DNA from: Candidatus Thorarchaeota archaeon
Lineage (GTDB): Archaea; Asgardarchaeota; Lokiarchaeia; Sigyniarchaeales; SOKP01
Length of the DNA stretch: 59,349 bases
Assembly: GCA_048882645.1 (NCBI GenBank)
Contig: JBHLRJ010000004.1
Location: forward strand, 1 to 59,349
Direction of reading: 5' to 3'
Numbering within the stretch: position 1 is the stretch's first letter; the number at the start of each line of letters is the position of its first letter. Positions 35,493-42,906 of the stretch are shown piece by piece. The translations under genes and the position numbers were made by a program. The notes under the pieces were generated by a model, which searched no databases, had not been told where the DNA came from, and saw only the letters and a list, made by a program, of their open reading frames with translations.

Positions 35493-37067
35493 TTAAGTGT
35501 GATTAACCTCTTCCCCATATCCTATTAAACGATAACGTCTATTGATGATTCGAGAAATTGCATATATAAAATTTTCTGGAGGACATATTGGTGGAGTAAG
35601 TTTTATTACTGTGCTATTTTTAAGTATCTTGGTTACAGTTCCTCCTGTCTTTTCTGTTCCAACCACTAATAACAACTTTTCCCCATGTTTTAAAGGCTGA
35701 ACTTTCATCTGAACTTCTGCGCCGATAACTCTGTCTAAAAGGTTAACTTTCAACTCAATTTCATTTAAAATCTCTGGGAGTGTTCCTGGACCTCCTACTA
35801 AGTGGCCAATTAGATGATCACCTTTAGTTAAGGCCGGATCCAATTTTGTACCTAATCCAATTAATCCTCCTGGTTTGGCAACTTGTAAGAGATTGTTTCC
35901 TTGACTAATACTAATAACTGTTGATCTAATTGGTATGTATTCATCTTTAATACGAATACCTGGTTTGATCTCAATTTGATCTCCAATATTAATCTTTCCT
36001 TTTAATACAGATCCTCCGATTACCCCACCTTTTAAATCTGTAATCTCTCTTCCTGGTAAGTTGATATCAAACGATCGAGCAATTAAAAATTGAAAGAATT
36101 CTTCTTCATTAAACTCAGGAGAGGGGATTACTTCTTCAAATGCCCTTACAACAGTAGGCATGTTCGCTCCAAAAACGGCAGATACAGGTATGATTGGAGC
36201 GTTCTCAGCAACAGTACCTTTCACAAAATCTATAATCTGTTGATGATTCTCCATAGCTTGCTCTTTGGATACAGCATCAATCTTGTTCTGCAAAATAATT
36301 ATGTTCTTTATACCAGCTATGTTTAGTGCTGCTAAATGTTCACGAGTTTGAGGTTGGGGGCATGGCTCATCAGCAGCAATTAAAAGACATGCACCATCCA
36401 TTAATGAAGCACCACTTAACATAGTCGCCATTAAAATCTCATGACCTGGTGCATCCACAAATGAGATGTTCCTCTTAAACTCCAAGTTTGCTTTACAATT
36501 CGAGCATGTAAATCGAGATTGTCCTTTTGTCCTCCTTTGTTCTGCTAGATAAGCTGTAAGATACTCATCACAAGTGGGGCAATAAAGAATTGTCGCATTT
36601 GAATACCCTAATTTGATGGAGATCCCCCTTTCTTGCTCTTCAGAATGCCGGTCTGTCCAATCTCCTGTTAAAGATTTAACTAAGGTGGTTTTACCATGGT
36701 CTACATGCCCAACTAATCCTATATTGCATTCTGCTTGTTGCTTAATAAGCTCTTTTATCTTTAAACCCTTACCTTCTGAATCTGGTTTTTTTTTTGTTTG
36801 AGTTTTAGATTTTGGTTCTTTTGTTTCGATTTTTTCTTCCTGAACTGTCTTGGAAGGTTGTTCCTTAGTAGAAATTTCTTTCAGAATTTCTTTCGCATTA
36901 GTAATGATCTTCTCTGCAGTTGCCTTTCCGATCCCTTTTATTTTCAATTTTACTAAATCACTGGAAGCTAACTTTGCCAGTTTTTCAATTGAATCTATCC
37001 CTGCAGCTCTCATTTTCTGAGCGGTGGTTTTCCCTATTCCCGAAATATCCTCTAATTCATAAGACAT
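35493..37067 (-). CDS. eif2g: Translation initiation factor aIF2 gamma with an N-terminal helix-hairpin-helix extension
   Basis: GHVDHGKT, RGISIKLGY, DAPGHE, PQPQTREH and NKID motifs; N-terminal ISGIGKTTA and IKGIGKATA. Confidence 0.95.
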   Translation of the reverse strand: MSYELEDISGIGKTTAQKMRAAGIDSIEKLAKLASSDLVKLKIKGIGKATAEKIITNAKEILKEISTKEQPSKTVQEEKIETKEPKSKTQTKKKPDSEGKGLKIKELIKQQAECNIGLVGHVDHGKTTLVKSLTGDWTDRHSEEQERGISIKLGYSNATILYCPTCDEYLTAYLAEQRRTKGQSRFTCSNCKANLEFKRNISFVDAPGHEILMATMLSGASLMDGACLLIAADEPCPQPQTREHLAALNIAGIKNIIILQNKIDAVSKEQAMENHQQIIDFVKGTVAENAPIIPVSAVFGANMPTVVRAFEEVIPSPEFNEEEFFQFLIARSFDINLPGREITDLKGGVIGGSVLKGKINIGDQIEIKPGIRIKDEYIPIRSTVISISQGNNLLQVAKPGGLIGLGTKLDPALTKGDHLIGHLVGGPGTLPEILNEIELKVNLLDRVIGAEVQMKVQPLKHGEKLLLVVGTEKTGGTVTKILKNSTVIKLTPPICPPENFIYAISRIINRRYRLIGYGEEVNHT

Positions 37068-39683: not shown

Positions 39684-39862
39684 TAGTAGATATCTGCTCT
39701 AAAGCCATTCCAATCCAAAAATTACTTTAAAAAGATTTATCTCATGCACCTCTTGCCTTAATGCTTTTAAAGTTATTCTTTCTTATGATAAAGTTTAATT
39801 ACTAGTCTTTATTATTTCTATTTACTCATTACCTAATAAGTAAGTATTTACAGAGGAAATAA

Positions 39863-39876
39863 CCGAACTTATTAAA
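39863..39876 (+). promoter_or_regulatory. Putative BRE/TATA promoter of the 5S precursor
   Basis: CCGAACTTATTAAA lies about 20-30 nt before the processing stem that starts at 39895. Confidence 0.45.
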
Positions 39877-39894
39877 TGGTAAACTGGTGGTTTC

Positions 39895-40105
39895 ATAACC
39901 ACATAAATGAATAGCAAATTGCTTAGCGTCGGAAGTTAAACATCTTGCTAGTTTATGGCATTGGACCAAACTGTTTTGCGTAGTTAGATAGTACTGCAGT
40001 TCTTATCTGTGGGAAACTAATAACTGTGAGTTCGCTCACGGTCATGGCAATTTAGGAAAATACCCGGTCCCATCCGAACCCGGAATCGCTTATTTATGTG
40101 GTTAT
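39895..40105 (+). other. Pre-5S processing stem with a bulge-helix-bulge-like motif
   Basis: 39895-39910 pairs with 40090-40105. Outer helix AGCG/CGCT, central helix TCGG/CCGG, bulges AAG and AAT. Confidence 0.8.
39935..40085 (+). rRNA. rrf: 5S rRNA, circularly permuted gene (3' half 39935-40030, UUCG linker 40031-40034, 5' half 40035-40085)
   Basis: Loop C signature ACCCGGTCCCATCCGAACCCGGAA (40062-40085) lies downstream of GTTAAAC and of loop E (AGTACT...GGGAAA). Helix I (ACTGTGAG/CTCACGGT) is closed by TTCG. Confidence 0.88.
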
Positions 40106-40130
40106 ACACTAAATCTTACCTTCGTGTAGA

Positions 40131-40141
40131 GTTTTTTTCTT
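40131..40141 (+). terminator. Oligo-T archaeal terminator
   Basis: T7 run just after the 5S precursor. Confidence 0.5.
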
Positions 40142-40209
40142 ATGGAATAATTTATTTATGTGATCGATAATAAAATATAATATATTTATCAGAAGAAGAC
40201 TAGAAAACT

Positions 40210-41349: not shown

Positions 41350-41871
41350 ATGCCACAAAAATTCATACTTAAGATCTTAACAGCAGGAGAGGGGGGTGTG
41401 GGAAAAACAACGCTTCTCCATAGATACGTGGAAGGAAAATTCTCAGCAGAAACAAAGATGACAATAGGCGTTGAATTCTTTTTAAAAGAGACGGAAATTG
41501 ACTCAAAGCACTGCACATTGCAGCTTTGGGATTTTGGAGGTCAAGAACGATTTCGCTTTCTTCTTGAAAGTTATGTTTTAGGAGCAAAAGGAGCATTACT
41601 CATGTTTGATCTCACACGAATAAGTAGCCTTGAAAATTTGGGACAATGGATTAACATAGTCCGAAAAGGTGATCCAAATCTCCCCGTTCTATTTTTAGGC
41701 ACGAAACTAGACTTAGAAGATGAAATTATGGTCGATGATGACTATGCAAAATCATTTTTAAATGAGTTTAATTTGATTGACTTTCTTAAAATCTCTTCAA
41801 AAACGGGCGAAAATGTTAGTCGAGCTTTTGATATATTAACGAGACAAATATTAGAGCGACAGACATTTTGA
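41350..41871 (+). CDS. Rab-like small GTPase
   Basis: GEGGVGKT, TIG, WDFGGQERF, TKLD and SSK motifs. Confidence 0.93.
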   Translation: MPQKFILKILTAGEGGVGKTTLLHRYVEGKFSAETKMTIGVEFFLKETEIDSKHCTLQLWDFGGQERFRFLLESYVLGAKGALLMFDLTRISSLENLGQWINIVRKGDPNLPVLFLGTKLDLEDEIMVDDDYAKSFLNEFNLIDFLKISSKTGENVSRAFDILTRQILERQTF

Positions 41872-42390: not shown

Positions 42391-42906
42391 ATGCGGAAAC
42401 GCAAAATATTAAAGGTTATTACTGCTGGTGAGGGCGGTGTAGGAAAAACAACTCTTCTTTATCGATATGTGGAAGATAAATTTCTGGCAGACACAAAAAT
42501 GACACTTGGTGTAGATTTTTTCATTAAAGAAGTTAATATTAACGGAGAAAAAATAGAATTACAAGTGTGGGATTTTGGAGGACAAGAAAGGTTTCGTTCC
42601 CTATTAGAAGATTATTCAAAAGGAGCTAGAGGAGCTCTTTTATTATTTGATCTTACTCGACCAGCAAGTTTAAACAATATTGAAGATTGGGTTAAAATTT
42701 GTAGGGATAGAAATCCAGAGATTCCGATTATCTTTTTAGGTACAAAATTAGATTTAATGGATGTGATTACAATCGAAGATAGATATGCGGATTATTTTAT
42801 GAACCGGTATAATTTTTTTAAATATCTGAAAATATCTTCTAAAACAGGTTATAATGTGAATTTAGCGTTTGAACTACTCACAAAGGAAATGATAAAAAAT
42901 CTTTGA
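42391..42906 (+). CDS. Rab-like small GTPase
   Basis: GEGGVGKT, TLG, WDFGGQERF, TKLD and SSK motifs; close paralogue of 41350-41871. Confidence 0.93.
   Translation: MRKRKILKVITAGEGGVGKTTLLYRYVEDKFLADTKMTLGVDFFIKEVNINGEKIELQVWDFGGQERFRSLLEDYSKGARGALLLFDLTRPASLNNIEDWVKICRDRNPEIPIIFLGTKLDLMDVITIEDRYADYFMNRYNFFKYLKISSKTGYNVNLAFELLTKEMIKNL

Follow-up and report, generated by a model that had tools for sequence, protein, structure and literature searches.

A circularly permuted 5S ribosomal RNA gene, predicted to be restored by excision and ligation, in a Lokiarchaeia genome and its relatives

The 5S ribosomal RNA (rRNA) is a universal component of the ribosome, and Asgard archaea are the closest prokaryotic relatives of eukaryotes. 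A passage of one report calls the 5S rRNA 'essentially constant' (PMC7594248), and according to a passage of another, the 5S genes of closed Asgard genomes 'could not be predicted' (PMC8813620). Here we ask whether a locus of a Candidatus Thorarchaeota archaeon (GTDB lineage Asgardarchaeota; Lokiarchaeia; Sigyniarchaeales; SOKP01) encodes this RNA in rearranged form, and how such a gene could give rise to a working molecule. The locus is a segment of 151 nucleotides (nt) at positions 39935-40085 of a 59,349-nt stretch of DNA (the window; positions 1 to 59,349 of the forward strand of contig JBHLRJ010000004.1, assembly GCA_048882645.1), in which the 3' half of a 5S rRNA comes first, followed by a TTCG loop and the 5' half. 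A preliminary description of the DNA, made from its letters, had proposed this layout together with a route of maturation. The genome that carries the gene comprises 3.79 Mb and is 88% complete, with 7.6% contamination.

No RNA family of Rfam matched the window at its gathering score (38 bits for the 5S rRNA model, RF00001), and ARAGORN found no transfer RNA (tRNA) in the whole window. At a permissive threshold, the sole RF00001 signal in the entire genome was a fragment at 40062-40085 (21.1 bits, model positions 27-51). A sub-threshold score with the colinear model is expected because the gene is permuted, and the preliminary description had foreseen that a linear covariance model would miss or truncate it. 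We rearranged the sequences of the window and of 21 relatives by script, cutting them at the predicted sites, joining the ends and opening the molecule at the loop of helix I. All 22 rearranged sequences could be aligned over their full length with nine conventional 5S rRNAs from a sister family, f2, and CCCATCCGAAC, GAAGTTAA, AGTAC and GGGAA fell into register; we take these conserved motifs to represent loop C and loop E. When scored with a profile hidden Markov model (HMM) built from the nine conventional f2 sequences, the rearranged sequence of the window reached 42.4 bits after removal of a 30-nt insert and 27.8 bits with the insert kept, in both cases over HMM positions 3-115, which bears out the predicted resemblance of the rejoined halves to a full-length 5S rRNA. 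Left in genomic order, the same sequence scored 10.6 bits over HMM positions 55-115.

The helices of the rearranged molecule covary. In an alignment of 23 permuted genes (helix III, which spans the breakpoint, was left out), 95.3% of the cells in helices I, II, IV and V can pair, and 16 of 26 helix pairs show compensatory change, being altered on both sides. None of 500 shuffles reached the observed values, and slid controls paired in 31-48% of cells. Comparison of sequences therefore supports the reading of 39935-40085 as a full-length 5S rRNA in circularly permuted order.

How could the two halves be put back in order? In the window, leader and trailer contribute the outer helix (AGCG/CGCT) of a bulge-helix-bulge (BHB) motif with a central helix TCGG/CCGG and the bulges AAG and AAT. 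Co-folding of the natural leader and trailer gave a minimum-free-energy structure that consists of a 16-bp stem, a leader hairpin, GCG/CGC, TCGG/CCGG and the 3-nt AAT bulge. The 16-bp flank stem (ATAACCACATAAAT / ATTTATGTGGTTAT) includes G·T pairs, 14 of its pairs being Watson-Crick. The reversed halves, their fusion by UUCG, the flank stem, the helices and the bulges were all found at the coordinates that the preliminary description had given, and its caveat of a relaxed 5' bulge was also correct, as the G of AAG can pair (GTT with AAC). Only GTT/AAC is pairable in the inner helix, which requires a 5' bulge of 2 nt; at 2-3 bp, this is a relaxed form of the motif.

We propose that leader and trailer of the primary transcript would fold into a long stem ending in the BHB motif, and that the tRNA-splicing endonuclease would cut after the second nucleotide of each bulge, that is, after 39934 and after 40085. 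RtcB would then join the ends of the excised 151-nt piece, rebuilding loop C and helix III of the 5S rRNA. With the TTCG loop closing the normally open helix I, the product would be a covalent circle. The 30-nt insert (39940-39969) would probably be removed in the same manner, leaving 121 nt, and the circle would most likely enter the ribosome. The genome encodes two EndA paralogues (197 and 205 amino acids; each with the N-terminal and catalytic domains, PF02778 and PF01974, 101.9 and 63.5 bits) and one RtcB (558.8 bits), the presumed enzymes of this pathway. Judged by known motifs, the catalytic residues are seemingly kept in the first EndA paralogue only, which would fit a heteromeric endonuclease. 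According to a passage of PMC4731332, heteromeric endonucleases accept relaxed motifs.

To assess the conservation of this layout, we investigated its distribution among related genomes. RF00001 scored above its cut-off in 9 of 41 related genomes, all of them in family f2 (9 of 11 f2 genomes), and in none of the 24 genomes from the genus of the window. A covariance model of the permuted core, built in this analysis, detected the core in 118 of 131 other genomes of the window's family (f1) in a sample of the order, covering 12 of 13 genera and normally in single copy. In the same sample, the core was found in 0 of 14 genomes of f2, which has conventional genes, in 0 of 4 of f4 and in the one genome of f3; in a sample of the class, it was found in 113 of 126 genomes of f1 and in 2 of 3 of f6, a family from another order of the class. 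The survey for the same layout that the preliminary description had suggested thus extended it to most of the family, with stems that covary. A conventional hit above the cut-off occurred in just 2 of 135 family genomes (L296 and L297, in G076 and G094). Both lie directly after the apparent 3' end of a bacterial-type 23S rRNA gene, and are for this reason probably contaminant contigs. Two single-contig genomes of the window's genus contain the permuted gene and no conventional gene.

We examined 118 complete family genes, 113 by script and 5 by eye (G095, G099, G117, G106 and G085), leaving two that are cut by contig ends (G045 and G004) out of the gene counts. Two breakpoints occur. In 87 of the 118 genes the break follows ..CCCGGAA, as in the window (type A), and in the other 31 it lies 16 nt earlier, after ..CCCGGTC (type B). 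The leader motif GCG-C(C/T)GG-AA is the same in both types; its partner is one of the two CCGG copies in helix III, the second or the first. When the cut is placed after the second bulge nucleotide, both types yield the same sequence, and the predicted junction of each type is contiguous DNA in the other; in particular, the sequence that cuts after 39934 and 40085 were claimed to restore stands uninterrupted in type B genes. The two types are thus an internal control, within the DNA itself, of the predicted cut rule and ligation. Both were found together in two genera. A tree of 5S sequences needs seven breakpoint changes, of which well-supported branches force only one, so that the number of switches is not resolvable from this tree. 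The predicted circles of the family measure 119-123, 149-153 or 180-181 nt.

Two further observations belong with this survey. A pattern with 14 specified bases, run against the whole collection, gave at least 120 matches; of those listed, nearly all were chance matches in bacteria and L211 alone was relevant. At L172 (G115), a second, degenerate 5S-like copy lies about 700 nt downstream of the type A gene (43 bits with the permuted-core model). Its 3' end resembles that of type B, its 5' part is long and disrupted, and it may be a pseudogene or the remnant of a duplication.

The BHB motif was assessed across the 113 relatives parsed by script, with cut sites set from homology alone and random position pairs of the same loci as a control. 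At the homology-predicted sites, the central helix formed all four pairs in 110 of 113 relatives and the outer helix at least 3 bp in 109 of 113. Both conditions held at 51 of 33,900 random position pairs; the motif exceeds chance. The seven motif pairs were formed in 97.1% of cells, compared with 74.8% (maximum 84%) when partners were shuffled. Among 25 distinct versions, the second pair of the central helix was C-G in 11, T-A in 11 and T·G in 3, and compensatory versions of this helix include CCGG/CCGG, CTGG/CCAG and CTGG/TCAG. A leader/trailer flank stem of 7-20 bp was present in every one of the 113 relatives, in 84 distinct sequence versions. A blind scan of the flanks for BHB geometry always included the true site, along with 24-50 spurious candidates per locus in this AT-rich DNA.

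We then asked what public sequencing runs hold. Parts of the DNA around the gene occur in 20 runs from 16 studies, of which 17 hold at least half of the sampled words and one is an RNA run. Three DNA runs and this RNA run, a metatranscriptome, were compared with 39800-40200. The contigs of all three DNA runs are colinear with the window, insert included, and one spans the whole of 39800-40200; no back-joints were found in the contigs of these three runs. The permuted order is therefore reproduced in independent assemblies (contigs rather than long reads), as regards the mis-assembly that the preliminary description had named as a danger.

Coverage by the RNA run is confined to about 39968-40093 and so has no bearing on the leader, the trailer or the insert of this strain. 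Three of its contigs match the locus, two of them crossing predicted junctions of the kind that the preliminary description had said should be sought and two closing on themselves; they stem from relatives of the strain. The first (151 nt, depth 2) reads 40043-40082, six letters and 39968-40072 with three differences, and its source is a relative that shares about 97% identity with the window. This contig spans the type A junction without the 30-nt insert, and its last 30 letters are the same as its first 30, which gives a period of 121. The second (151 nt, depth 17) runs from the helix I hairpin through the 5' half and the type B junction into the 3' half, and matches the RNA predicted for several type B genomes in every letter. 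The third measures 149 nt with a period of 119. Periods of 121 and 119 are predicted circle sizes, and the joins need real junction reads, because leader and 5S share no 31-letter word. The RNA cycles fit a circle without proving one.

On this evidence we regard it as almost certain that the permuted gene is put right by excision and ligation, and we think it fairly likely, with less assurance, that the mature RNA remains a circle and is present in the ribosome in this form. Several points weigh against this account. The inner helix of the motif has merely 2-3 bp, and the 5' bulge may be of 2 nt; the insert of the window has three of four central pairs and a weak hairpin, and was missed by a blind scan for the canonical motif. 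The RNA evidence consists of assembled contigs from one run and from relatives rather than this strain, and precursors mixed with reopened molecules could likewise produce a cycle in a de Bruijn graph. A genome that is 88% complete also leaves room for an unassembled second 5S gene, in this genome alone.

It is possible, if on the whole unlikely, that the circle serves as an intermediate only and is opened again, at the helix I loop or close to it, which would give the ribosome a conventional linear 5S rRNA. The permuted tRNAs of a red alga, which are finished by end-processing enzymes, offer a precedent (mentioned in passages of PMC4267664 and PMC3326292), the RNA data are contigs that cannot reveal the ends of molecules, and 35 of the 109 loops of four nucleotides on helix I fall outside the stable UNCG type. 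Yet 109 of 113 genes keep the loop at exactly 4 nt, most often as a stable tetraloop (TTCG in 62, UNCG type in 74); TTCG or GTAA caps the helix in distant families, and the RNA cycles contain the loop intact. The conventional genes of the sister family f2, moreover, appear to need no end processing. A TATA-like box lies about 25 nt ahead of their start and a T-run marks their end, and because promoter and T-run sit directly at the RNA ends, an end-trimming pathway seems unnecessary. These f2 genes were also considered as an obvious precursor state of the permuted gene and rejected, as they have no processing stem. In one single-contig f2 genome (L004, G032), three conventional 5S genes follow one another in tandem at intervals of about 375 nt; a permuted unit could arise from an array of this kind.

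If the transcript were trimmed and never ligated, the product would be a linear, permuted 5S rRNA with its ends in loop C, much like the linear permuted 5S rRNAs known in organelles (PMC4267664). We consider this very improbable for the archaeal gene, as the predicted junctions of both types are read through in RNA contigs, the breakpoint falls in the most conserved part of the molecule, and covariation links the 5S sequence to the central helix of the splicing motif in the flanks. It is hardly credible that the locus arose in assembly or is a defunct rearranged copy, with the working 5S gene left unassembled: completeness of 88%, contamination of 7.6% and the frequent loss of rRNA genes from such assemblies speak for it, whereas the order kept in the contigs of three other DNA runs, the 17 runs with at least half of the words, the two single-contig genomes of the genus, the near absence of conventional hits from the family (both beside a bacterial-type 23S end) and the covarying 5S helices speak against it.

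What is the 30-nt insert at 39940-39969? It is flanked by an AAAC repeat and absent from the site in all 115 other parsed family genes. It has no second copy in the genome at up to three mismatches and thus gives no sign of a repeated mobile element. The insert is present in independent DNA contigs and absent from the RNA contig of the approximately 97% identical relative. No canonical BHB motif was found for it in a strict blind scan; a relaxed scan gave a build of 1+23+4+2 with bulges AAA/AAA, three of four central pairs and a weak hairpin.

Inserts of about 30 nt are not confined to the window. One or two occur in 45 of 113 family genes, at no fewer than six other sites (loop C, helix IV, loop D, helix I and others), with L013, L028, L018, L165 and L053 as example loci. 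Each of five tested inserts has a canonical helix-bulge-helix-bulge-helix by blind scan, all of build 1+23+4+2, and the predicted cuts restore the insert-free sequence of relatives exactly. By eye, a helix I insert in another genus resembles that of the window. We lean towards the view that the insert of the window is a mini-intron, and that it would be spliced in this strain too. The preliminary description had predicted a circle of 151 nt; the segment between the predicted cuts does have that length, and the 151-nt piece is probably the primary product of excision only, to be followed by an RNA of 121 nt if the insert is removed.

Permuted genes were also found elsewhere in the phylum, where a conventional RF00001 hit above the cut-off occurred in 49 of 151 sampled genomes. 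In f3, the break lies in loop B, with CCGA/TCGG, AAA/AAA bulges and a predicted 121-nt circle. Family f6 has a central helix GCCG/CGGC and an outer helix of at least 5 bp, and f8 (genomes of 1.3-1.4 Mb, one of them closed) has a textbook motif with a 10-bp outer helix and a central helix CGTG/CACG, which f24 shares. Sub-threshold RF00001 hits in f10 (two closed genomes), f13, f22 and f25 are permuted genes as well. By eye, the cut rule restores the 5S sequence at the breakpoints of f3, f6, f8, f10, f22 and f24.

Some loci of these families differ in other ways. In the two single-contig f10 genomes (L304 and L305; Rfam 31 bits), a 30-nt leader hairpin stands between the outer helix and the central BHB helix. 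A colinear, strongly divergent 5S-like gene with an odd 3' half was found in one f4 genome (L022, G031; 28.6 bits), and the other three sampled f4 genomes gave no 5S match with RF00001 or the permuted-core model. In f12, a 5S gene in conventional order carries an insert of about 32 nt after loop C (L311, G273), its Rfam score being lowered to 32 bits.

The features of the locus are listed in Table 1. From its position, the recurrent upstream block is likely an archaeal promoter, with the transcript starting near the foot of the flank stem. A scan for sigma-70 promoters, whose consensus is bacterial and not relevant to an archaeon, gave no match. Translations read by eye place an aIF2-gamma-like GTPase with a long N-terminal helix-hairpin-helix-like extension at 35493-37067 of the window (- strand), and two small Ras/Rab-like GTPases at 41350-41871 and 42391-42906 (both + strand), on either side of an open reading frame of 147 amino acids.

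Table 1. Coordinates in the window of the permuted 5S rRNA gene and its flanking elements.
Feature	Position	Strand	Remark
Upstream block with TATA-like box (CTTATTAAAT, 39868-39877)	39858-39879	+	Block recurs upstream of relatives' genes
Flank (processing) stem, 5' strand	39895-39910	+	Pairs with 40090-40105
Small leader hairpin AGCA / TGCT, between flank stem and BHB	39912-39925	+	From co-fold; equivalent in relatives
Outer BHB helix, 5' strand AGCG	39925-39928	+	Pairs with CGCT 40087-40090; covaries across the family
Central 4-bp BHB helix, 5' strand TCGG	39929-39932	+	Pairs with CCGG 40080-40083, one T·G
5' bulge AAG	39933-39935	+	Predicted cut between 39934 and 39935
Predicted excised permuted 5S rRNA, 151 nt	39935-40085	+	3' half 39935-40030, loop 40031-40034, 5' half 40035-40085
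30-nt insert, candidate BHB mini-intron	39940-39969	+	Removal would give a 121-nt circle
Helix I, 3' strand CTGTGAG	40024-40030	+	Read in the sequence
TTCG tetraloop capping helix I	40031-40034	+	Site where a conventional 5S rRNA has its two ends
Helix I, 5' strand CTCACGG	40035-40041	+	Read in the sequence
Central BHB helix, 3' strand CCGG	40080-40083	+	Doubles as 3' strand of 5S helix III
3' bulge AAT	40084-40086	+	Predicted cut between 40085 and 40086
Trailer: CGCT (outer helix), then flank-stem 3' strand 40090-40105	40087-40105	+	
Run of seven T	40132-40138	+	Likely archaeal transcription stop, from its position

Several known systems resemble the proposed pathway in part. Permuted tRNA genes occur in the red alga Cyanidioschyzon merolae and in some Thermoproteales. 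As here, the 3' half is encoded first, and a circular RNA arises, in our case by prediction, once a BHB-type motif has been cut; the tRNA circle, however, serves as an intermediate and is opened again by tRNA end-processing enzymes, and we know of no such enzymes for 5S rRNA. In engineered Escherichia coli, a permuted 5S fused into the 23S rRNA reportedly works in the ribosome with its natural ends closed; that construct is artificial and part of the 23S rRNA rather than a free circle. Circular or permuted 23S rRNA is also said to exist inside the archaeal ribosomes of some lineages. Archaeal precursors of 16S and 23S rRNA are circularised through a BHB motif in the processing stem, and 5S rRNAs are stated not to be so processed, in a passage of PMC12918454. 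The 5S locus resembles those genes in the placement of the motif, in excision and in the predicted circularisation of an rRNA, but those genes are colinear and have their normal ends joined, whereas here the order is permuted and ligation would be needed to make the molecule at all.

The proposed pathway agrees with one set out in a passage of PMC4731332: the permuted signal recognition particle (SRP) RNA gene of Thermoproteus tenax has a BHB motif formed by leader and trailer and cut by a heteromeric endonuclease, RtcB is the proposed ligase, the circular RNA is the functional form, and an origin from BHB introns is suggested. The 5S gene shares with it a permuted non-coding RNA, a leader/trailer BHB and a circular product, in our case predicted. 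It differs in that the RNA is ribosomal, in its occurrence in a family of more than 100 species genomes and in other lineages of the phylum, in having several alternative breakpoints and 30-nt inserts inside the permuted gene, and in being known from sequence only.

The preliminary description knew of no permuted 5S gene. For archaea this stands, as no published case of a permuted or circular 5S gene was found in the literature searched; it does not hold in general, as brown-algal mitochondria have permuted 5S rRNAs that, according to PMC4267664, are linear, arise without splicing and have their ends at the three-way junction. In those as in the archaeal gene, helix I is replaced by a closed hairpin and the ends lie elsewhere; the algal RNAs, however, are organellar, keep the permuted order in their final linear form and involve neither a BHB nor ligation. 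For Sulfolobus, a passage of PMC3326292 mentions circular 5S reads at a low level, not validated.

What does this locus mean for the organisms that carry it? In a whole family, and in several more families of the phylum, the 5S gene is permuted, would work only after excision and ligation, and has no conventional counterpart. If this is true, translation in these organisms would depend on tRNA-splicing enzymes. The permuted layout may explain the 'missing' 5S genes of Asgard genomes, and touches on genome-quality standards that require a 5S gene. Two breakpoints in one family, together with mini-introns at six or more sites, offer material on the origin of permuted RNA genes. Our judgement is evenly balanced on the broadest picture, in which many Asgard archaea would have ribosomes with a covalently circular 5S rRNA, made by the tRNA-splicing machinery from permuted, intron-bearing genes whose breakpoint has moved repeatedly, possibly by way of 30-nt mini-introns. 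In such organisms, the question of whether ribosomes can work with a circular 5S rRNA would have a natural test.

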